This document shows positions 2,807-60,874 of a stretch of 64,000 bases of DNA, in pieces (positions within the stretch are counted from its first letter, which is position 1; each line of letters opens with the position of its first letter). The stretch spans positions 1,836 through 65,835 of the forward strand of contig CAZZGX010000027.1 of assembly GCA_964653715.1 (NCBI GenBank). Reading direction: 5' to 3'. The notes beneath the pieces are model-generated. The model did no database searches. It was not told the DNA's origin and saw only the letters and a program-made list of their open reading frames with translations. This DNA comes from an uncultured Candidatus Saccharibacteria bacterium (GTDB lineage: Bacteria > Patescibacteriota > Minisyncoccia > Ryanbacterales > GWA2-47-10b). The translations under genes were made by a program, and so were the position numbers.

Positions 2807-3880
2807 ATGGAAAATTCTCATACCGTTCTCGACGTGCTCAAAGTATTCGGTCTTGCCGGGTTTTCATTTTTTGTCGCGTTTTTCTTAACGCCGCTTTTGA
2901 CCTATTATCTCTATCGATATAAACTGTGGCCAAAAAAAAATGATCGCGAAGCGCTTTCAGGCGGTCATGCGACTGTTATTTCCAGCTTAGTCAAAGAGCG
3001 TTCAAATCAAGAGACTCCTCGAATGGGGGGAATCATTATTTGGGGAACGACGCTTGTTGTCACTCTCCTTTTTTGGGTACTTGGGAAAATTATTCCTGAT
3101 CCATTATTCGTAAAGCTAAATTTTCTCTCACGCGAGCAAACATGGCTTCCGTTCTTTGCGTTTATGACGGCGGCATGTATCGGACTTCTTGATGACTGGA
3201 TGCTTATTCGTGGGCAAGGCAAATACATAGGTGGAGGGATGGCGCTTACCATGCGCATTCTTCTTGTGGTAGGTATTGGAACAATTGGGGGATTTTGGTT
3301 CTATGGTCCGCTCGGCAGGGGAGATATCTCTATTCCGTTCTTAGGAGCGCTGCATCTTCAGTATTTTATTATTCCATTTTTTGCGCTTGTCATGCTCGCC
3401 GTTTTTAGCTCTGGCGTTATAGACGGACTTGATGGCCTTGCGGGCGGAGTGTTCGGCGCGATTATTGCCGCCTACGCCGGGATCGCTTTTTTCCAGCAAC
3501 AACTTAATCTTGCCGCGTTTCTTGCCGTTATTGGAGGGGCATTGCTTGCTTTTTTATGGTACAACATCCCTCCCGCGCGTTTTTATATGGGGGAATCAGG
3601 AATTCTGGGGCTTACTTCTATGATCACGGTTATCGCATTTTTAACCGATGCCGTAGCTGTTTTACCAATTATTGCTTTTCCGCTCGTCATCGAAACAGGA
3701 TCTGTTATCATACAGGTAGCCTCAAGAAAATTGCGTGGCAAAAAGGTCTTTATCGCGGCCCCTCTCCATCACCACTTTGAAGCAAAGGGCTGGCCCCACT
3801 ATAAAGTCACTATGCGGTTCTGGATTGTAGGCCTTGTTTCAGCACTCATCGGTATGGTCGTGCATTTGATTGGCAAATAA
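2807..3880 (+). CDS. mraY: Phospho-N-acetylmuramoyl-pentapeptide transferase
   Basis: Polytopic membrane protein with MraY signatures GLLDDW and APLHHHFE. Confidence 0.9.
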   Translation: MENSHTVLDVLKVFGLAGFSFFVAFFLTPLLTYYLYRYKLWPKKNDREALSGGHATVISSLVKERSNQETPRMGGIIIWGTTLVVTLLFWVLGKIIPDPLFVKLNFLSREQTWLPFFAFMTAACIGLLDDWMLIRGQGKYIGGGMALTMRILLVVGIGTIGGFWFYGPLGRGDISIPFLGALHLQYFIIPFFALVMLAVFSSGVIDGLDGLAGGVFGAIIAAYAGIAFFQQQLNLAAFLAVIGGALLAFLWYNIPPARFYMGESGILGLTSMITVIAFLTDAVAVLPIIAFPLVIETGSVIIQVASRKLRGKKVFIAAPLHHHFEAKGWPHYKVTMRFWIVGLVSALIGMVVHLIGK

Positions 3881-3882
3881 CT

Positions 3883-5472
3883 ATGGCTTCGATTTCATAT
3901 CTTATAAAAGGGGGAACACTGATCGATGGATCTGGGTTTCCGATGACCCAGGATAATGTTGCTATTTCTGGAGAGACGATCAAAACCGTTGGTGCGGGAA
4001 GTGCTTCTGGCGCTACGCGCGTGATCGATGCTACTGGGAAATACGTAATTCCTGGTATTATTGATATTACGAATCACTCTGACACGCATTGGTCATTGTT
4101 TCTCTCTCCTTCGCAAGAAAGCCTTTTGCGTCAGGGGATAACTACTATTGTGGGTGGAGTATGTGGCTCCTCTCTTGCTCCTCTTGCTGATGCCCAAGCA
4201 ATACGCGCTATCCAAAAATGGACGGATCTTTCTAAAGTAAACATCAACTGGCAAACCCAGGAAGAATTTTTTATGGAGATTGAACGACATGCCCTCGGCG
4301 TTAATTTTGGGACACTCGTGGGGCATGGAACACTGCGCCGCGGAATCGCAAATGATAGAATTGATCAACTTACACCCAGCGAGCTTGAATCCATGAAACT
4401 ATTGCTTCGCAGGTCGCTTGATGAGGGCGCGTTAGGACTCTCGATCGGGCTTACCACAAGCCATGGATCGGTAGCGTCACAAGAAGAAATAATCGGGCTC
4501 GCAAAGGTTGTAACGGAGGCGAGAAAATTTGTCAGTATTCACCTTCGAAATGAGGGGCGTCGCATCCTTTCTTCAGTTGTGGAGGCAGTCAATATTGCGC
4601 GACAGAGCGGCTCACCCGTTCACATAGTGCATTTGAAAGGTATTGGCCGAAAAGCATGGAATGATTTTCGGAAAGCACTCGCGATTATTCGTAAAGCAAC
4701 AAAAGACGAACATCTCCCGATCACGGTTGATTTTTTCCCGTACTTACGAACGGGTTCGCTACTCTACACACTTCTTCCCGAATGGATGCGCGAAGGTGGT
4801 AAAGAAAAAATCTTAAAAGTCTTAGCAAATAAGGAACGACATCCCGAGGTTATCGAGAGTATCCAATCTCTCACGTTACATTATGAAAACATTATCGTTT
4901 CCGAGGCGCATAAAGACAAGCATGCGATAGGAAAATCAATAGCTCGCATTGCCTCTGAATCAGGCCTCACGCCCGAAGAGACGCTTGCGCAACTTCTGAT
5001 TGTGAATGAACTCGGAGTGAGTATTTTTGGGCGGACGTTGCGCGGGAAAAACATTGTTTCGCTCGCAAAGGAATCGTACAGCATGTTCGGCTCGGACGGC
5101 GTTGGCGAAAGCGATTTTGATACAAAAAAGAAAGGCAATCTTACGCATCCCCGTTCATACGGGGCGGCTCCGCGGTTTTTAAATCGTCTTGTGAAACGAG
5201 GCAAGGTTCTCAGCTGGGAAGAAGCGGTACGAAAGATGACTTCCATGCCCGCCGAGCTCCTTGGGCTTAAAGAATCCCACGGGCTCATTAAAAAAGGATA
5301 TGCTGCGGATCTTGTCATTTTTGATCCTGAAGAGCTCACCGATACTGCCACGTATCGTGATCCGTTTCAATATCCGAAAGGCATCGACTATGTTTTTATC
5401 AATGGACGCCTTGCACTTGAAAAAGGAGTTTTTACAGGAGCGCTTGCGGGAAAGATTCTCCGTCAAAGCTAG
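3883..5472 (+). CDS. Amidohydrolase family protein (N-acyl-D-amino-acid deacylase-like, Amidohydro_3)
   Basis: N-terminus GGTLIDGSG...IPGIIDITNHSD and length around 530 aa match D-aminoacylase-like amidohydrolases. The canonical HxH metal motif is degenerate (NHS). Confidence 0.6.
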   Translation: MASISYLIKGGTLIDGSGFPMTQDNVAISGETIKTVGAGSASGATRVIDATGKYVIPGIIDITNHSDTHWSLFLSPSQESLLRQGITTIVGGVCGSSLAPLADAQAIRAIQKWTDLSKVNINWQTQEEFFMEIERHALGVNFGTLVGHGTLRRGIANDRIDQLTPSELESMKLLLRRSLDEGALGLSIGLTTSHGSVASQEEIIGLAKVVTEARKFVSIHLRNEGRRILSSVVEAVNIARQSGSPVHIVHLKGIGRKAWNDFRKALAIIRKATKDEHLPITVDFFPYLRTGSLLYTLLPEWMREGGKEKILKVLANKERHPEVIESIQSLTLHYENIIVSEAHKDKHAIGKSIARIASESGLTPEETLAQLLIVNELGVSIFGRTLRGKNIVSLAKESYSMFGSDGVGESDFDTKKKGNLTHPRSYGAAPRFLNRLVKRGKVLSWEEAVRKMTSMPAELLGLKESHGLIKKGYAADLVIFDPEELTDTATYRDPFQYPKGIDYVFINGRLALEKGVFTGALAGKILRQS

Positions 5473-6745
5473 AAGCCCCGTTCTTATCCTCGGGTTGGGT
5501 CTTCATGGCGGCGGAGTCGGAGCGGCGAGTTTTTTTGCGCGTCTTGGATACTCGGTAACCGTTACGGATCTTAAAGCAAAAAAGGAGCTCTTGATATCGT
5601 TAAAAAAATTGCGCGGTTTACCAATCAAATACATTCTCGGCAAACACCGGATGGAAGATATTAAACGAAGCAAACTTATCGTTAAAAATCCGGGTATCCC
5701 AGCGAGTTCCCCGTATGTAATAGCCGCTCAAAAATATCATATTCCTGTGACAAATGACGGAGAGCTTTTTATGGAACTCGCCCCTCGCAAAAAAGTAATA
5801 GGGATCACCGGTACAAAAGGCAAAACAACCACTGCGATGCTCGTAGGCCGTCTTCTCGGAAAAGAAGCGTTTGTCGTCGGAGTTCCGGGTGTTTCGTTTT
5901 TTGATTACTTTGACCGCGTACGCGAACCGAAATGGATTGTTGCTGAATTCTCAAGTTTTGATCTCGAATTTGTTAAAAAAAGTCCCCACATAGCCGTCTT
6001 CACGTCACTTTTCCCAGATCATCTTGACCGTTACCCCACCTTTAAAAAATACGCTTCTGCAAAAATGAACATCGTCCGCCATCAAACGAGCGGGGATGTA
6101 GCGATTTTTGCTTCATCTCCCAACACGCGTTCTCAAAGAGTAGAGTCTAAAAGTAAAGTAATTTGGGTAGACCTCGGGTCAAAAAAATACCGAGCTCCGT
6201 GGCCGACATCACACAATTCCGTGGCGCTTGCCGCCCGAGTAGGAGAAATATTAGGCTTTACTCAAAAAACAATCCAAGGGCGGTTTCATTCTTTCCGCCC
6301 GCCAAAAGGTAGGCTCGAAATAATATATCGCACAAAAAATCAGATATATATAAATGATACAACCTCTACGAATCCGGGGGCCGCGATGCATTCAATAAAA
6401 CTCATCGAGGAGCGTTTTGGCAAACAAAAACCTATTATTGTGATCACGGGAGGGGAGGATAAATCATTCCCAGCCGAAGAATTGAAAACATACGCGGAGT
6501 TTCTTCAAAATCATGCTATACGTGCTGTTTTTCTTAAAGGCTCAATGACTGAAAAATTGAAAAAGTACCTGCCCCATTTCGAGAAAACCTATACCTCCAT
6601 GCAAAATGCGGTCCGCGCGGCTCAATCATTCGAAGGAATTATCGTACTCCTTCCGGCAGCTGCTAGTTTTAATATGTTTCGCGACGAGTTTGATCGTGGA
6701 GAAAAATTTCTACGAGCTATACATCACAATGCGCGTGCAAAATAA
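5402..6745 (+). CDS. murD: UDP-N-acetylmuramoylalanine--D-glutamate ligase
   Basis: Rossmann start VLILGLGLHGGG, Mur ligase P-loop GITGTKGKTTT, and position between mraY and ftsW. Start is uncertain: ATG 5390 or 5402, or TTG 5444. All overlap the amidohydrolase 3' end. Confidence 0.8.
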   Translation: MDALHLKKEFLQERLRERFSVKARSPVLILGLGLHGGGVGAASFFARLGYSVTVTDLKAKKELLISLKKLRGLPIKYILGKHRMEDIKRSKLIVKNPGIPASSPYVIAAQKYHIPVTNDGELFMELAPRKKVIGITGTKGKTTTAMLVGRLLGKEAFVVGVPGVSFFDYFDRVREPKWIVAEFSSFDLEFVKKSPHIAVFTSLFPDHLDRYPTFKKYASAKMNIVRHQTSGDVAIFASSPNTRSQRVESKSKVIWVDLGSKKYRAPWPTSHNSVALAARVGEILGFTQKTIQGRFHSFRPPKGRLEIIYRTKNQIYINDTTSTNPGAAMHSIKLIEERFGKQKPIIVITGGEDKSFPAEELKTYAEFLQNHAIRAVFLKGSMTEKLKKYLPHFEKTYTSMQNAVRAAQSFEGIIVLLPAAASFNMFRDEFDRGEKFLRAIHHNARAK

Positions 6746-23892: not shown

Positions 23893-23972
23893 ATCCCCCT
23901 CCTCCCAATGACGATGAACTTTCGAAAATACATTACCATAGGTATGTGAAGTTTGTCGAATTCCATCCCAAC

Positions 23973-24045
23973 TCCGCCCGGCAGGAATCGAACCTGCGAC
24001 CATCTCCTTAAAAGGGAGCTGCTCTACCGACTGAGCTACGGGCGG
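23973..24045 (-). tRNA. tRNA-Lys (anticodon UUU), CCA not encoded
   Basis: Hand-folded cloverleaf: D-arm TAGCTCAGTCGGTAGAGCA, anticodon loop CTTTTAA, variable loop TGGTC, T-arm GCAGGTTCGATTCCTGC (near-identical to E. coli tRNA-Lys), acceptor CCGCCCG/CGGGCGG, discriminator A. Confidence 0.85.
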
Positions 24046-24059
24046 AGTTGGGAAACAAT

Positions 24060-24512
24060 TTATCGTGAGCGCGATATCAGAAAAAGGCCTATGAGGGGCA
24101 TGACCATCCAAAAAAGAAACGCGTTGTTGCCGCTAAAAAAGGCTAATGTGAGCGGCGAGAACTTTACTATACCACGGAATGAAAGTAAGTTCAATGTACC
24201 TGCCATAAAAAGTCCGATCGCGAGAAAACTCGCGATAAACGATTGCCACCATTTGTATGAGGCGCGCTCGGCACGCAATATCACGCGATCAAAAAACAAA
24301 AAAAGGACAAGCATAAGCCCAGCGTAGAAAGAAAGGTTACGGTATATATGGTAGTCAATCTTATATTCGTCAAAAAGCTTGAAGAACAGCGGACTTAAAA
24401 AGAGGGAAAGATATGTGGCAAGCATAAAAGAAAGAAGTTTTGTCTTGCCGTTTCCCATCATTCCGCCGATAAGCCCCGCCAGCAAAAAAATAAAACGAGG
24501 AGCGCATCCCAC
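24060..24512 (-). CDS. Hypothetical polytopic membrane protein
   Basis: Four predicted TM segments and no recognisable motif. Start uncertain. Confidence 0.4.
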   Translation of the reverse strand: MGCAPRFIFLLAGLIGGMMGNGKTKLLSFMLATYLSLFLSPLFFKLFDEYKIDYHIYRNLSFYAGLMLVLFLFFDRVILRAERASYKWWQSFIASFLAIGLFMAGTLNLLSFRGIVKFSPLTLAFFSGNNAFLFWMVMPLIGLFLISRSR

Positions 24513-47353: not shown

Positions 47354-47389
47354 AAAAAAATCCCCCCGCCCGAGGCGGGGGGATTTTTT
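47354..47389. terminator. Strong bidirectional intrinsic terminator (A7-ATCCCCCCGCC-CGA-GGCGGGGGGAT-T6)
   Basis: Perfect 11-bp GC stem with flanking A/T runs, 12 nt downstream of the major pilin stop. Confidence 0.85.
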
Positions 47390-56306: not shown

Positions 56307-58094
56307 TTATTCTTTAGTGGCGCGGATAACTTCTTCAAGCGTGGTAATGCCTACAATAACTTTCTGAATCCCGTCCTCGAGCATCGTGGTCATGCCGCTA
56401 CTCTCTGCCACTTTCATAATTTCGATAGAGGCCGCCCGTTTGGTAATTAAATCTTTAATTTCATCGTTCATCAAAAGCACTTCAAAAATTCCAACCCGCC
56501 CGAGGTATCCCGTGCTAGAGCAAACAGGACATCCCCCGCCCTTGTAAAAACGAATTTTCGCAAACGACGATTTATTCTTTATCTTTAAAAGCTTTTTTAA
56601 GTGCGGGTCCTCTTCGATCATTGCCTTTTCCTCCGGAAGAAGTTTATACGAGACGCGGCACTTCTCACAAATGCGGCGCACGAGTCGCTGGGCGATGATA
56701 CAATTGACGGTTGAGGCCACAAGAAATGGCTCGACCTTCATATCCAAAAGGCGCGGCAGAGTGGTCGCCGCGTCATTTGCGTGGAGCGTTGAGAGGACGA
56801 GGTGGCCGGTCATGGCTGAGTTTACGGCGATATCAGCGGTTTCCTCATCGCGGATCTCGCCGACCATAATCATGTCCGGGTCCTGCCGGACGATCGCGCG
56901 AAGTCCTTTTGCGAACGTCAGATTGGTTCTTGAGTTTACCTGAATTTGGCTGACTCCTTCAATTTCATATTCAACAGGATCCTCAATGGTTGAGATATGA
57001 ACGTCGCGGGTGTTTAAAATTTTGAGCATGCCGTAGACCGTCGTCGTCTTCCCGGATCCCGTAGGGCCTGTTACAAGAATCATCCCGTGCGGATTGTCGA
57101 TCGAGCGGCGGACTTTTTTAAAATCAGCCTCACCCAACCCCAAATCCGTAAGGCCAAATTGCCGGCTCCGAGCCGAGAGGATACGCATGACGACATTTTC
57201 GCCTTCGGTCACCGGCACAATGGAAATACGAACGTCCACTTTTTCATCATCGGCCTCAAAAGCAAGCTTACCATCCTGTGCCGCGCGGTGCTCGTCAGTA
57301 CGCATTTTCGATAATATTTTTATGCGCGTCAAAATCAAATCCATGAGCGCTTTGGGCACGTCAAGAACATCGTGCATAACGCCGTCAACTCGAAAGCGAA
57401 CCATTACCTTGCCGGGGTGCGGCTCCACATGAATATCGGATGCCTTTGAATCATATCCGTAGTGGAGCAGCATATCGACAACCTCAACGATAGTCTCGTC
57501 GCGCTCCTCTTTTGAAAGAAGAGTGTCGTTGAGCTTGCCAAGAATTTTTTTAAATTCATCGTGAATATTGGCTTTGTAGCGCGCGAGTACATCATCAAAA
57601 CTCCGGCGTGTCATGTAAAACGGCATGACTTTAGCGCCGAGCCGTTTTTCAAGAAGATGCGTTGCCTCAAAATCATCGGGATCGCGCATGCCTACCTTGA
57701 CGCCCGCACCCCTGCGCGAGAAGGCAACCACACCGCGCGCGCGCGCAACTGCTTCGGGAATTTCGTGAAGTAGCGCCTCATCAATTTTTTCTTCCTTAAG
57801 ATCGACGAAGGAAACTCCCAGCTCCTCTGCTATGATCTTACCTAGCTGGTCGTCATTGATAAGGTCCTTATCAATCAAAAGCTCGTCGAGTGCTTTCCCC
57901 TGCTCACCTGCTTCTTTTTTGGCAAGCTCAAAATCCGCCTCCGAGACAAGACCGGGCTTTACCAGCAACTCCTTTATTTTTTCATCGGTAAGGTCCACAG
58001 CTAAATTTAATTGTATTATAACTGAAAGCGGTAGATGGAGACAGTGCTTTGTTTTAAAGTATATATTGGTGGTCTTTGGAGGGATCAATGACAA
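56307..58094 (-). CDS. pilB: Type IV pilus assembly ATPase PilB (GspE family)
   Basis: N-terminal GSPII_E_N domain, Walker A GPTGSGKTTT, and a tetra-Cys motif (CEKC...CPVC). 595 aa. The N-terminus overlaps the divergent XRE gene; the true start may be the downstream GTG at 57998. Confidence 0.9.
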   Translation of the reverse strand: MSLIPPKTTNIYFKTKHCLHLPLSVIIQLNLAVDLTDEKIKELLVKPGLVSEADFELAKKEAGEQGKALDELLIDKDLINDDQLGKIIAEELGVSFVDLKEEKIDEALLHEIPEAVARARGVVAFSRRGAGVKVGMRDPDDFEATHLLEKRLGAKVMPFYMTRRSFDDVLARYKANIHDEFKKILGKLNDTLLSKEERDETIVEVVDMLLHYGYDSKASDIHVEPHPGKVMVRFRVDGVMHDVLDVPKALMDLILTRIKILSKMRTDEHRAAQDGKLAFEADDEKVDVRISIVPVTEGENVVMRILSARSRQFGLTDLGLGEADFKKVRRSIDNPHGMILVTGPTGSGKTTTVYGMLKILNTRDVHISTIEDPVEYEIEGVSQIQVNSRTNLTFAKGLRAIVRQDPDMIMVGEIRDEETADIAVNSAMTGHLVLSTLHANDAATTLPRLLDMKVEPFLVASTVNCIIAQRLVRRICEKCRVSYKLLPEEKAMIEEDPHLKKLLKIKNKSSFAKIRFYKGGGCPVCSSTGYLGRVGIFEVLLMNDEIKDLITKRAASIEIMKVAESSGMTTMLEDGIQKVIVGITTLEEVIRATKE

Positions 58095-58342
58095 AGGACG
58101 GTATTAATCAGAAGTTCGTGGCACGACGGATTCGAGAAGCGATAGATATGCATGCCGAAGGCGATATCCAGCTATTTGCGCATTACGTCGGGCTCTCTGC
58201 TTCAGCAATGTACAACTATATCCATACCGAAAGAACCCCTTCAACCAGAGCGCTTTGGAAAATATCTAGATTCACGAACTTGCCAATGGAATGGTTTCTC
58301 ACAGAACCCAAACGGCAAATCACGAACCTTTCAGACAATTAA
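58076..58342 (+). CDS. XRE-family helix-turn-helix transcriptional regulator
   Basis: Cro/C1-type HTH (FAHYVGLSASAMYNYIHTERTPSTRALWKISRFTNLPMEWF). 88 aa. Confidence 0.65.
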   Translation: MEGSMTKDGINQKFVARRIREAIDMHAEGDIQLFAHYVGLSASAMYNYIHTERTPSTRALWKISRFTNLPMEWFLTEPKRQITNLSDN

Positions 58343-58346
58343 AAAA

Positions 58347-58371
58347 ACCGCCCACGGGCGGTCTTTTTTTT
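58347..58371 (+). terminator. Intrinsic terminator (A7-ACCGCCC-ACG-GGCGGT-T9)
   Basis: GC hairpin plus U-run 5 nt after the XRE stop. Confidence 0.8.
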
Positions 58372-58387
58372 ATTAAACACGTCTGCA

Positions 58388-58417
58388 TTGACAAAAGAAC
58401 AGTTTTAGTGTAAGAAT
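58388..58417 (+). promoter_or_regulatory. Consensus-like sigma70 promoter TTGACA-17 nt-TAAGAAT
   Basis: Perfect -35 hexamer, 17-nt spacer and a good -10. About 20 nt downstream lie AAGGAGG and an ATG at 58448. Confidence 0.6.
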
Positions 58418-58447
58418 AAGTTAGACAAATTTGCCAAGGAGGTTTCA

Positions 58448-58909
58448 ATGCGGCGAATCAGGCGATTCTTTCAAAAAATAACTCTCATCGAACTCATCGC
58501 GATTTGTGCAGTGGGAGGTATTACAGGCAAAATGTACCTTCTCGTGCGAGAGCGACAAGATCTGCGAATGCAGATCGGTGTCGTACTGCTCGAGCATAAG
58601 CTCGTGTATCGTTACGAAGAGCGCGGGTTTGGCACTCTTGCGCGTCTTTGCAAAAGTACACCGCGCAAATGGCGCGAGTTTTACTTTACCTGCAAAGCAA
58701 CGAAAAGACCAAGTGCGCCAGCCTCGCTTGTAACCACGATATACCGCAATCGATTCGCGGCCAATCATAAATACGCCGCTTTCAAGCGGCGCTGGCAATC
58801 ATCTGAATGGATCCCCATTCGGCGCTCACCCGGACTTGTCTCGCGACAAGTCCGTTTTTTTATTTATCCGGAAATTCTTTTTAAAATTGTTCTTTCAATA
58901 AAAAAATGA
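58448..58909 (+). CDS. Hypothetical highly basic small protein, OR an untranslated about 440-nt RNA (ORF runs through its own terminator)
   Basis: The best promoter and SD in the window sit upstream. The 153-aa ORF (MRRIRRFFQKITLIELIAICAVGG...) continues about 50 nt past an intrinsic terminator at 58831-58862. Confidence 0.3.
   Translation: MRRIRRFFQKITLIELIAICAVGGITGKMYLLVRERQDLRMQIGVVLLEHKLVYRYEERGFGTLARLCKSTPRKWREFYFTCKATKRPSAPASLVTTIYRNRFAANHKYAAFKRRWQSSEWIPIRRSPGLVSRQVRFFIYPEILFKIVLSIKK
58831..58862 (+). terminator. Intrinsic terminator (CGGACTTGTC-TCGC-GACAAGTCCG + T8)
   Basis: Perfect 10-bp stem plus U-run. It lies inside the 58448 ORF. Confidence 0.75.
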
Positions 58910-58938
58910 GGGTGTCCGGCACCTAGCAGGACACCCTC
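58901..58938 (-). terminator. Intrinsic terminator for minus-strand gene 58978..59580 (GAGGGTGTCC-N11-GGACACCCTC, T7 on minus)
   Basis: 10-bp stem preceded by A7 on plus. Convergent with the plus-strand terminator 40 nt away. Confidence 0.7.
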
Positions 58939-58977
58939 TTAGTCGCAGACACCTGATCAACTTGCTTTAGCCATCGC

Positions 58978-59580
58978 TTACTCGTAAACCACGAGCTTGT
59001 TGTCTCGGTGGTCAAGCGCGATTCGCGGTGGAAGACTCCACTCCTCTGCAAGTTTCTCGACCAGCTGGTCTGACGGCTTGGCAAGTTTGCAACTTTCGTC
59101 GCTAAGCTGGACCCAATTGCCGAACTTGCGCGCGTAGTAGCCATCATCACGCTTTTCTACACGGAACGCGTAGAAACTCGCTTGGTCCTTCGCCTGTGCC
59201 TTATACGCGCCTTTCTGTCCATGCTTGTCTGCGGCGCGTTCGCGGCAAACCGGGCAAGCGCGGTGAAGCTTCAAGAAATCAGAGAAACTGTAATAGGCAT
59301 TCCCGTAGCCGTGGGAATACTCCTCCCTCCCTTCGACGAGCAGGAGTTCTGCTCTACCCGTGGGAACAATTTCGGAGCAATAGGTGCACCAAGTCATTCC
59401 GCGAGCATGGAGTTCCTGCTGGAGAAGCTCGACGCGTTTCGCGCCGTATTCGCTAACTACCTGCCGGAGTGTCTGTTGCTTGGCGGAAAGTTTGAGTGAA
59501 ATCTGGTCGATGTTCTGTGCTGTACGCTCGGCCCGCTTACGCATGGCCAAAAGCTCTGTCGCCATCGCTTCTTGTGCCAT
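58978..59580 (-). CDS. Hypothetical coiled-coil protein with CxxC...CxxC zinc ribbon
   Basis: 200 aa. N-terminal heptad region, then CTYCSE-x27-CPVCRE. SD AAAGGAGAG 7 nt upstream. Local GC is above the window background. Confidence 0.55.
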   Translation of the reverse strand: MAQEAMATELLAMRKRAERTAQNIDQISLKLSAKQQTLRQVVSEYGAKRVELLQQELHARGMTWCTYCSEIVPTGRAELLLVEGREEYSHGYGNAYYSFSDFLKLHRACPVCRERAADKHGQKGAYKAQAKDQASFYAFRVEKRDDGYYARKFGNWVQLSDESCKLAKPSDQLVEKLAEEWSLPPRIALDHRDNKLVVYE

Positions 59581-59654
59581 AAAAAGCTCTCCTTTTTATG
59601 TTTGATTGTTGGAGTTCCATAAACAAGCTACCAAAAACAGCAATAAAAATCAAA

Positions 59655-59688
59655 CGAAAACAGAAACCATTTCAAATTTCTGTTTTCG
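59655..59688 (-). terminator. Terminator hairpin (CGAAAACAGAAA-N10-TTTCTGTTTTCG), T-rich on minus side
   Basis: Perfect 12-bp stem 30 nt downstream of the 59717 stop. Confidence 0.55.
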
Positions 59689-59716
59689 AAAAATCTTTAT
59701 GAAAAAAATTCTTTTG

Positions 59717-60001: not shown

Positions 60002-60063
60002 AAATTTATCTTATCCCCAGAATCTACAAAAGTCAAAATAAGAATCTACAACTCCGTCTCAAA

Positions 60064-60150
60064 GCGGAGAGGGTGAGATTCGAACTCACGAGAGGATTGC
60101 TCCTCTGGCGGTTTTCAAGACCGCTGCCTTCAACCACTCAGCCACCTCTC
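60064..60150 (-). tRNA. tRNA-Ser (anticodon UGA), class II with long variable arm, CCA not encoded
   Basis: Hand fold: GGAGAGG-TG-GCT-GAGTGGTTGAA-GGC-A-GCGGT-CTTGAAA-ACCGC-CAGAGGAGCAATCCTCTC-GTGAG-TTCGAAT-CTCAC-CCTCTCC-G. Confidence 0.85.
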
Positions 60151-60195
60151 CGCTCTACTACGGAATCATTTCAAATTTTTAAGACCGCCGCCTTG

Positions 60196-60405
60196 TCGCG
60201 CTTATCACGCGGTTAAACATGACACGAGTCATGTTTAACGGGCTTCCCGCCTCGCCTCGATGGTGAGTCGAGGCGGGCGCCCGTCAAAAGCAACCCCATT
60301 GCTTTTGACCCACCCAGCCACCCCACCAGTGCAAATAGAATATCAAAATTGGGGCGAATTTCAACTTGAAAATAAATTCGGGGACGTTCCTTTTGGAACG
60401 TCCCC
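60196..60405. repeat. Cluster of four unrelated perfect/near-perfect GC-rich palindromes (stems 11-12 bp) plus minor AT palindromes
   Basis: 60212-60239 GTTAAACATGAC/GTCATGTTTAAC. About 60249-60279 CGCCTCGA/TCGAGGCG. 60283-60309 GTCAAAAGCAA/TTGCTTTTGAC. 60378-60405 CGGGGACGTTCC/GGAACGTCCCCG; the last also acts as terminator for the 60427 gene. Confidence 0.8.
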
Positions 60406-60426
60406 GACTCTTTGTTCGGCCAGCAA

Positions 60427-60735
60427 CTAGACCGGACGGATCTCGTGCACTTTGCGCTGCAACACGACGACCTTGCCATTGAGCGGCGTGGCCACCTGGA
60501 TGCGTTTGCCCACACGGCGGCGCACTTTGCCTGTGAACTCTCGCCTCCCATGCGTAAGCCTTACCTGGTCGCCCGGCGTAATCTTCACAGTGACGCCTTC
60601 GACGATGGTCCCATCTGGAAGGATCAGATCCCGTGGCTCCAGATGCTCGAGGCTCACCGGGGGTACAAACTCTTTGACCCCAGGCCGCAGGTATAGTAGA
60701 GCAGCAACTCCGATGAAAATCAGCAAAATGCTCAT
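60427..60735 (-). CDS. Hypothetical small membrane-anchored protein encoded in a 60+% GC segment
   Basis: 102 aa. SD GGAAGGAGG 6 nt upstream. N-terminal TM (MSILLIFIGVAALLYL) then a beta-rich domain (ILPDGTIVEGVTVKITPGDQVRL...). Hand-counted GC about 63% over 120 nt versus about 33-45% elsewhere. Confidence 0.55.
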   Translation of the reverse strand: MSILLIFIGVAALLYLRPGVKEFVPPVSLEHLEPRDLILPDGTIVEGVTVKITPGDQVRLTHGRREFTGKVRRRVGKRIQVATPLNGKVVVLQRKVHEIRPV

Positions 60736-60874
60736 TTCTGCCTCCTTCCTTCATTGTAAAACAGTTTCATGAACCCAAAAACATTATATCATAATTATAT
60801 TGATTGTCAATATTCGTATAAATCTATTGTTATGCGCGATACTTCGTGCTAGGGATAAGCAGTAATTTATACCA

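Follow-up and report, generated by a model that had tools for sequence, protein, structure and literature searches.

The integration of mobile elements is an established source of partial tRNA genes (PMC9897764), and the recorded configurations of islands at tRNA genes (tDNAs) include a 5' tDNA fragment upstream of the tDNA (159 of 3919 islands) as well as crossover subsites centred on the anticodon (PMC4383910). Tandem hairpins of a different kind make up the arrays of the TIGR-Tas (tandem interspersed guide RNA and TIGR-associated) systems reported in phages and parasitic bacteria, where each unit comprises two spacers of 8-12 nt and box C/D motifs in a hairpin loop and where a Tas gene with a Nop domain lies adjacent (PMC12045711). 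Here, we compare with such systems a field of stacked hairpins in the 65.9-kb contig CAZZGX010000027.1, of which a stretch of 64 kb was analysed (hereafter "the window"). The field is a 275-nt spacer (60152-60426) on the 5' side of a gene for tRNA-Ser(UGA), with an orphan open reading frame (ORF) of 102 aa on the minus strand (60427-60735) at its other side, and all of its elements are on the minus strand. The reading that we favour, with middling confidence, is that the field consists of a terminator (hairpin H4) and a non-conserved leader of pre-tRNA-Ser, the latter built on the scar of a tRNA fragment that carries a 115-nt insertion of hairpins. Most probably, the hairpin field is a lineage-specific by-product of mobile-DNA traffic and not a new system. 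From the orphan ORF towards the tRNA gene, its parts are as follows:

60378-60407, minus strand: H4, GC-rich hairpin with a perfect stem of 13 bp (9 GC pairs) and the loop TTTT, about -26 kcal/mol
60337-60364, minus strand: sigma-70-like promoter with an extended -10 element, TTGAAA-16-TGaTATTCT
60327-60310, minus strand: block A, pseudo-copy of tRNA-Ser positions 1-18, 15 of 18 identical (12 of 13 at positions 6-18)
60283-60309, minus strand: H3, AT-rich hairpin with a perfect stem of 11 bp and the loop CCCCA, -13.4 kcal/mol
60246-60277, minus strand: H2, GC-rich hairpin with 9 perfect bp, a 1x1 internal loop and a 3-bp tip
60240-60282, minus strand: extended H2, with a 4-bp outer helix added, -31 kcal/mol
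60212-60239, minus strand: H1, AT-rich hairpin with a perfect stem of 12 bp and the loop ACGA, -14.8 kcal/mol
60197-60211, minus strand: H0, small hairpin CGCGU-GAUAA-GCGCG, with 5 bp when read on the minus strand versus 4 bp on the plus strand
60194-60176, minus strand: block B, pseudo-copy of tRNA-Ser positions 22-40, 17 of 19 identical, with the anticodon UGA changed to UAA
60064-60151, minus strand: intact tRNA-Ser(UGA) gene, called by ARAGORN and scoring 57.6 bits with the tRNA model of Rfam

The favoured reading is carried by the two partial copies of tRNA-Ser, blocks A and B, which lie collinearly on the tRNA's own strand upstream of the intact gene. The hairpin block of 115 nt fills the gap between them exactly, where it replaces UUG (positions 19-21) at the position of the D-loop, and the end of block B falls 2 nt beyond the anticodon loop, at the anticodon-centred subsite of crossovers and at a distance of 24 nt from the intact tRNA. 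Chained together, the two blocks score 23, whereas 1000 dinucleotide shuffles of the leader do not exceed 19; the score of block B by itself was reached by none of 1000 shuffles, and with block B held fixed, a score like that of block A arose in 11 of 5000. On both strands of the whole window, the score of block A is matched only by its own site and by the tRNA itself. The locus therefore holds what defines a displaced tDNA fragment, namely a significant partial copy in the same orientation with the 5' fragment upstream, while an integrase-carrying island between this fragment and the intact tDNA is not found. Block A is overlapped by a G-run, GGUGGGGUGGCUGGGUGGG (60309-60327), on the transcribed strand, with a C-rich counterpart on the plus strand; from its sequence, the run is a candidate for a two-tetrad G-quadruplex.

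Between H4 and the tRNA, no promoter-like site was found other than the sigma-70-like promoter, and the start of transcription predicted from it (around 60330) lies 3 nt before position 1 of block A. Since this is where the promoter of a tRNA gene would put it, the arrangement suggests that the fragments represent an original 5' half together with its native promoter.

H3, H2, H1, and H0 directly abut with linkers of zero length and thus form one block (60195-60309), in which the loops measure 3-6 nt. An earlier note on this DNA had described four different perfect, GC-rich palindromes with stems of 11-12 bp, and the four are indeed in place, with H0 as a fifth, small hairpin beyond them and with an H3 stem that grows to 12 bp on the minus strand if a U-G pair is counted. 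H2, however, is perfect over only 9 bp next to its 1x1 loop, and GC-rich stems are limited to H4 and H2, whereas the arms of H1 and H3 have a GC content of 33% and 36%, respectively. The assignment of the last palindrome as terminator of the gene at 60427 agrees with what we see: the 102-aa ORF has its stop codon 20 nt before the start of H4, whose stem is followed on the minus strand by AUUUAUUUUC, and from these letters H4 reads as the canonical intrinsic terminator of that ORF. It is terminator-like on the plus strand too, and other terminators in the window are likewise perfect palindromes (e.g., 47355-47389). The remaining hairpins had been said to lack a U-run, which is borne out on both strands: neither a U-tract nor a terminator call follows H1, H2, H3, or H0, the tails behind the hairpins of the block read GGGC..., CGCG..., and CCAC..., and because they also lie downstream of the promoter, these four are not terminators. 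Equally, we concur that they are not repeats of a CRISPR array, given that the stems differ, that there is no periodicity, and that no arm has a copy elsewhere in the window with up to 2 mismatches.

The hairpin cluster is real and far denser than chance, as had been claimed for this interval relative to the rest of the window. Three of the nine perfect hairpins in the window (stem of at least 9 bp, loop of 3-10 nt) lie in the field, whereas dinucleotide-preserving shuffles of the window (n = 30) contained a mean of 2.5 such hairpins per 64 kb and had at most one within 250 nt in 29 cases and two in the remaining one. Clusters of at least three such hairpins within 250 nt were encountered twice in 1.35 Mb of prokaryotic loci, and none of 101 regions upstream of similar tRNA-Ser genes contained more than one. 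Folding of both strands with RNAfold, which had been proposed as a check, gave z-scores against shuffles of -7.6 for the minus and -7.9 for the plus strand of the 275-nt spacer, and a GC-corrected sliding scan singled out the 150-nt segment starting at 60176 on the minus strand as the most structured one of the 64 kb (z of -5.5). Stacked hairpins beside tRNA genes do occur elsewhere, as illustrated by a high-GC tRNA array at another locus (L196, 2158-2710) with two tRNA-Ser-like genes and a third tRNA, where two abutting perfect GC hairpins come right after one tRNA and another one after the third.

No relative of the hairpin block emerged from the collections that were searched. With Rfam 15, at gathering as well as permissive thresholds, the tRNA alone passes; the best of the remaining matches, which overlap the tRNA or H4, fall well short of the threshold. 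In 0.4 Mb of related loci, a covariance model built from the block recovered nothing but the block itself. The comparison with plasmids and phages that the earlier note had called for, done by blastn against 72,556 plasmids (PLSDB) and 50,697 phage records (INPHARED), returned chance-level matches only (for PLSDB, E of about 0.8 with 10-15% of the query covered). Exact pattern scans gave 0 matches for the H2/H3 junction in metagenomes and 0 matches for H1, H3, and H4 in IMG/VR, while the pattern of the H2 stem had 9 unrelated GC-rich matches. Among 120 loci from a tRNA-based metagenome scan, none has a similar upstream region or hairpin field; in the closest tRNA-Ser loci (L204 and L179), the tRNA is preceded by a coding gene and a short promoter region rich in AT. 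No record matched the flanking proteins exactly, and no viral relatives of island proteins were found. Finally, a GTDB genome scan and a protein search yielded relatives with a 74-77% identical version of the neighbouring PilB-like ATPase, and since these have other upstream genes and no tRNA-Ser, synteny breaks exactly at the field.

A further comparison is with the one orthologous locus found (L209; Logan SRR6488693; 71% identity over 877 nt in blastn). It shows the same order of a pilB-like ATPase gene (a 404-aa T2SSE gene in the same position), tRNA-Ser(UGA), a conserved terminator, and a gene for a 200-aa protein, yet the hairpin block is absent; a lack of the hairpins at homologous loci is what the earlier note had named as speaking against its proposal. 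In their stead, the slot of the window's hairpin field and 102-aa ORF is occupied by a LAGLIDADG-type ORF of 332 aa (3647-4645; a faint LAGLIDADG_3 match) that ends 1 nt before tRNA-Ser. On the 3' side, a mini-island of 1.7 kb extends from tRNA-Ser(UGA) (4646-4730) to a displaced 3' fragment of the tRNA (6421-6443; 23 nt, of which 21 are identical) and contains a homologue of the 200-aa protein, a 94-aa ORF, and a HicA toxin, with no integrase. The tRNA-Ser(UGA) locus is therefore an integration hot spot.

Followed 5' to 3' along the minus strand, the favoured reading would unfold in four steps. H4 would end transcription of the upstream orphan ORF and be followed by a promoter and a decayed 5' half of tRNA-Ser, probably the original half that was displaced by a recombination event ending at the anticodon loop. 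This pseudo-half would then have been split at the position of the D-loop by the 115-nt insertion of the four abutting hairpins H3, H2, H1, and H0, and the intact tRNA-Ser would follow 24 nt further on. The stretch of about 178 nt is most likely transcribed as the 5' leader of pre-tRNA-Ser and cut off by RNase P, and the hairpins would have no conserved sequence-specific function but be tolerated, or at most stabilising, in a scar of mobile DNA. That the leader is transcribed and processed by RNase P, that the recombination events took place in this order, and that a function is lacking are inferences on our part. Long structured leaders are not the rule in this genome: the tRNA-Lys gene of the window (23972-24060), with neither a promoter of its own nor hairpins, begins 14 nt past a coding gene's stop codon.

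Several points weigh against the favoured reading. To our knowledge, no insertion mechanism gives four abutting, unrelated, near-perfect hairpins at a D-loop. The distance of merely 24 nt between block B and the tRNA means that the classical order of fragment, island, and tDNA would need a later deletion of the island. A displaced 3' fragment of the tRNA is found nowhere in the window, and no integrase was found in the scanned stretch of 42.5-64 kb, for which the domain scans covered, across 42.5-57 kb, ORFs from about 110 aa upwards and, around the field, the small ORFs. The non-conservation of the block is seen at very few true orthologous loci, essentially at L209. A single independent assembly was found (L207; Logan ERR3478687); it agrees with the window at 100% identity over 57629-59707 and breaks at a poly-T/A stretch just 3' of the 94-aa gene, before the tRNA and the hairpins are reached. 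Lastly, the transcribed minus strand folds more stably than the plus strand by about 14 kcal/mol (-80.2 versus -66.6 kcal/mol, and -84.7 versus -70.9 kcal/mol in a second computation), which could indicate selection for RNA structure.

This last observation leads to an alternative that we consider unlikely, namely that the leader of about 180 nt or its 115-nt core is a functional, lineage-specific RNA, either as a stable small RNA after RNase P cleavage or through an effect in cis on the maturation of tRNA-Ser. It would be consistent with the promoter directly upstream, with the lack of a terminator before the tRNA, with the location of the most structured 150-nt segment of the 64 kb on the favoured minus strand, and with U-G pairs that lengthen H3 and H0 on this strand only. 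In the minimum free energy (MFE) fold of leader and tRNA together (60060-60335, minus strand), block A pairs with the 3' acceptor strand of the real tRNA and the region of block B with the 5' half of the real tRNA-Ser, so that the leader is, in this model, a potential misfolding competitor of the cloverleaf. The strand asymmetry is nevertheless small and comes mainly from flanking G-rich sequence, because the stems are perfect Watson-Crick palindromes, and the absence of the block from L209 and all other fetched loci argues further against a functional RNA. For the structured RNA that the earlier note had listed among its options, a small probability is thus left, reduced by the lack of an Rfam family and of conservation at one orthologous locus.

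Lower still is the probability we assign to an insertion resembling miniature inverted-repeat transposable elements (MITEs), repetitive extragenic palindromic (REP) sequences, or bacterial interspersed mosaic elements (BIMEs), or to a product of template switching or fold-back, in a dead tRNA fragment; the hairpins would then recur in the genome. The borders of the block are certainly sharp, with exactly tRNA positions 19-21 replaced, it is made of hairpins only with no linkers, and perfect stems suggest a recent origin at the level of DNA. Against this stand the lack of terminal inverted repeats or a target-site duplication at the ends of the block, the metagenome and viral scans without matches, and the absence of a second copy of any arm from the window, which is about 6% of an assumed genome of about 1 Mb.

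A more elaborate scenario, which strikes us as improbable, is that the ancestral 5' half of tRNA-Ser, with its own promoter still driving it, has been exapted as a tRNA-derived structured RNA that bears the hairpin module in its D-loop, is released by RNase P, and modulates the maturation of tRNA-Ser(UGA) in cis or in trans. The folding model suggests that pairing with the 3' half of the real tRNA-Ser is possible for both the pseudo-acceptor and the pseudo-anticodon strand of this RNA, and in the reduced genome of a member of the candidate phyla radiation (CPR; see below) such an RNA would serve as a folding competitor or chaperone.

We regard as similarly improbable that the palindromes act at the DNA level as sites for proteins, be it operators of dimeric regulators (e.g., the HTH_3 protein encoded at 58076-58342) or core sites of recombinases. 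Perfect dyads with arms of 11-13 bp and centres of 4-5 bp would suit such proteins, as would the recombination scars at the locus, the phage-repressor-like HTH gene 2 kb away, and a serine recombinase at the equivalent position in one relative. But four unrelated, abutting sequences are unlike the layout of operators or att sites, no recombinase gene was found in the scanned stretch of 42.5-64 kb, the centre of H1 is itself palindromic (CG) and hence gives a recombinase no polarity, and none of these sites was found in relatives. Of the recombination site suggested in the earlier note, what stands is that the hairpins lie among pieces of a tRNA gene of the sort that is typical of recombination scars; palindromes as recombinase substrates gained no support.

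An artefact of assembly or amplification is highly improbable: the source is a contig of a metagenome-assembled genome (MAG) and L207 stops before the tRNA and hairpins, but typical chimeras are long inverted duplications instead of four different stems of 11-13 bp, and the flanks are coherent, with an intact tRNA, an ORF that has its promoter and terminator, and collinear tRNA fragments. Least credible of all is an origin of transfer (oriT/nic) or single-strand origin (sso) of an integrated plasmid, integrative and conjugative element, or rolling-circle element, which the earlier note had favoured on the general resemblance of hairpins stacked within about 200 nt (here beside a tRNA gene) and which is contradicted by the lack, within about 18 kb, of a relaxase, Rep, integrase, or type IV secretion system (T4SS) coupling protein in the Pfam scans of 42.5-64 kb, by plasmid and phage matches at chance level only, and by scans of GC skew and DnaA boxes without the signature of an origin.

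More specific candidates were also rejected. For a rolling-circle sso or double-strand origin, there was no Rep domain and no plasmid or phage match, a negative in which no dedicated model of the conserved sso motifs was used. A chromosomal origin (oriC), suggested by the skew and by the switch of gene orientation, has a single DnaA box with one mismatch nearby (60011), no cluster of such boxes, and no turn of the skew at the site. A dif/Xer site at the 28-bp H1 was dismissed on inspection for its weak resemblance to a XerD arm and a location that is not terminus-like.

The neighbours of the field are housekeeping and type IV pilus genes, and the wider locus is organised around two clusters of the latter that, in Pfam scans, enclose the hairpin field: one on the minus strand with PilC, a response regulator, a histidine kinase, and PilB and one on the plus strand with PilB, PilC, and pseudopilins. 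The PF00437 ATPases belong to type IV pili because PilC (T2SSF), an MshEN domain, and prepilins accompany them. The neighbouring PilB-like ATPase has at most 77% identity to any database protein, and its best named relatives are from MAGs of Paceibacterota, Yanofskybacteria, and Zambryskibacteria, which identifies the genome as one of Patescibacteria (CPR). Between the pilus clusters, at 58.1-60.8 kb, lie small genes with a promoter and a terminator each, encoding a repressor-like HTH_3 protein, a 153-aa ORF, the 200-aa protein, a 94-aa coiled-coil protein, the tRNA, and the 102-aa ORF. Three features of this interval and its border are of further interest here:

60427-60735, minus strand: orphan 102-aa ORF with a hydrophobic helix at its N-terminus and, before its ATG, the ribosome-binding site GGAGG
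60783-60810, minus strand: promoter of the 102-aa ORF, TTGACA-16-TGnTATAAT, 12 of 12 consensus matches and an extended -10 element
58978-59580, minus strand: 200-aa gene of a conserved CPR family, 3' of tRNA genes, a marker for the island side of the hot spot at tRNA-Ser

The 102-aa ORF has a GC content of about 0.6 compared with 0.46 for the genome and no match in Pfam or PHROG. No homologue was found among 5.8 billion proteins, a collection from which the ORF itself is missing and in which the neighbouring ATPase and 200-aa protein are present.

The 200-aa protein is predicted to have a long helix at its N-terminus and a beta domain of the Zn-ribbon type (confident AlphaFold model with a mean predicted local distance difference test, pLDDT, of 91.5). 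Its cysteines C68, C109, and C112 are invariant, with C65 almost invariant; the protein has no match in Pfam or PHROG and no sequence or fold match in the PDB. Its family comprises 159 cluster representatives at E of 1e-3 or less and is found across the CPR. All long contigs examined (the window as well as L208, L209, L210, L213, and L215) have the gene on the 3' side of a tRNA gene (Ser-UGA, Ser-GCU, or Arg-UCU), at a distance of a few hundred nt, and one of these loci adjoins a large serine recombinase. The protein thus looks like a signature cargo gene of islets that integrate at tRNA genes. Upstream of the 200-aa gene, at 59655-59688, is a terminator with the arms CGAAAACAGAAA...TTTCTGTTTTCG followed by TTTGATTTTT, which is conserved at 4896-4930 of L209; the genes around this terminator differ between the window and L209.

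A few further observations concern the surroundings. The 153-aa orphan ORF (58448-58909, plus strand) comes with a perfect ribosome-binding site, AAGGAGG, and a promoter with TTGACA, and its coding sequence contains a perfect 10-bp palindrome (58831-58854); on both strands, the stretch of this ORF (58476-58950) ranks second in the window for structure. From about 12 kb onwards, the cumulative GC skew declines steadily until about 63 kb, and a rise is seen only in the last kilobase. Gene orientation switches at 58-60.8 kb, where no cluster of DnaA boxes is present.

If the favoured reading is true, the locus would be a small, clear case of how the tRNA genes of ultra-small CPR genomes gather the debris of recombination, with a 5' tRNA fragment that still has its promoter and later gained a block of hairpins. 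A striking density of hairpins would then be, by itself, no sign of an oriT, an sso, or an RNA gene. Should the block turn out to be a stable, expressed RNA or to recur in relatives, it would instead represent a new tRNA-derived RNA or a palindromic mobile unit. Of the leads at this locus, the tRNA-adjacent 200-aa protein of the CPR may be the more promising one.

Among known systems, oriT, sso, and attC sites share with the field the presence of several inverted repeats within about 200 nt, and H1 (GTTAAAC...GTTTAAC) has a superficial likeness to the R boxes of attC. An attC site is bounded by the boxes 5'-RYYYAAC and GTTRRRY-3', has an imperfect stem with extrahelical bases, measures 57-141 bp, and occurs with cassette ORFs and the integrase IntI. 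In H1, the order of the boxes is inverted (GTTRRRY...RYYYAAC) and the stem is perfect over 12 bp with no extrahelical bases; a 55-nt dyad (60234-60288) ends with GTCAAA and not with GTTRRRY; and there is no IntI and no cassette ORF between the hairpins. TIGR arrays are similar in that tandem hairpins have stems that differ from unit to unit and in the kind of organism. They were rejected because of the loops of 3-6 nt, the lack of a Nop domain among the neighbours, and a 200-aa coiled-coil neighbour without a Tas-like fold. With REP, BIME, and MITE-like elements, the field has in common that stable extragenic hairpins are clustered, frequently abutting and frequently close to tRNA genes or terminators, whereas those elements are multi-copy with a shared consensus and the field has four differing stems of which none recurs in 64 kb. 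The likeness of H4 to intrinsic terminators is straightforward: soon after a stop codon comes a perfect stem rich in GC with a tetraloop, and a U-rich tail follows it. The closest match are tDNA-fragment islands, whose ends are marked by displaced pieces of tRNA genes (the Islander principle) and which the locus resembles in its 5' fragment upstream of the tDNA, in the endpoint at the anticodon loop, in its ORFan cargo, and in the classic mini-island bounded by a 3' fragment at the orthologous L209. It differs from them in that 24 nt take the place of an island, that no integrase was found, and that the hairpin block interrupts the fragment at the position of the D-loop. This split by a hairpin block is unusual and we have not seen it described, while the tDNA-fragment scar in which it sits is of a known kind.

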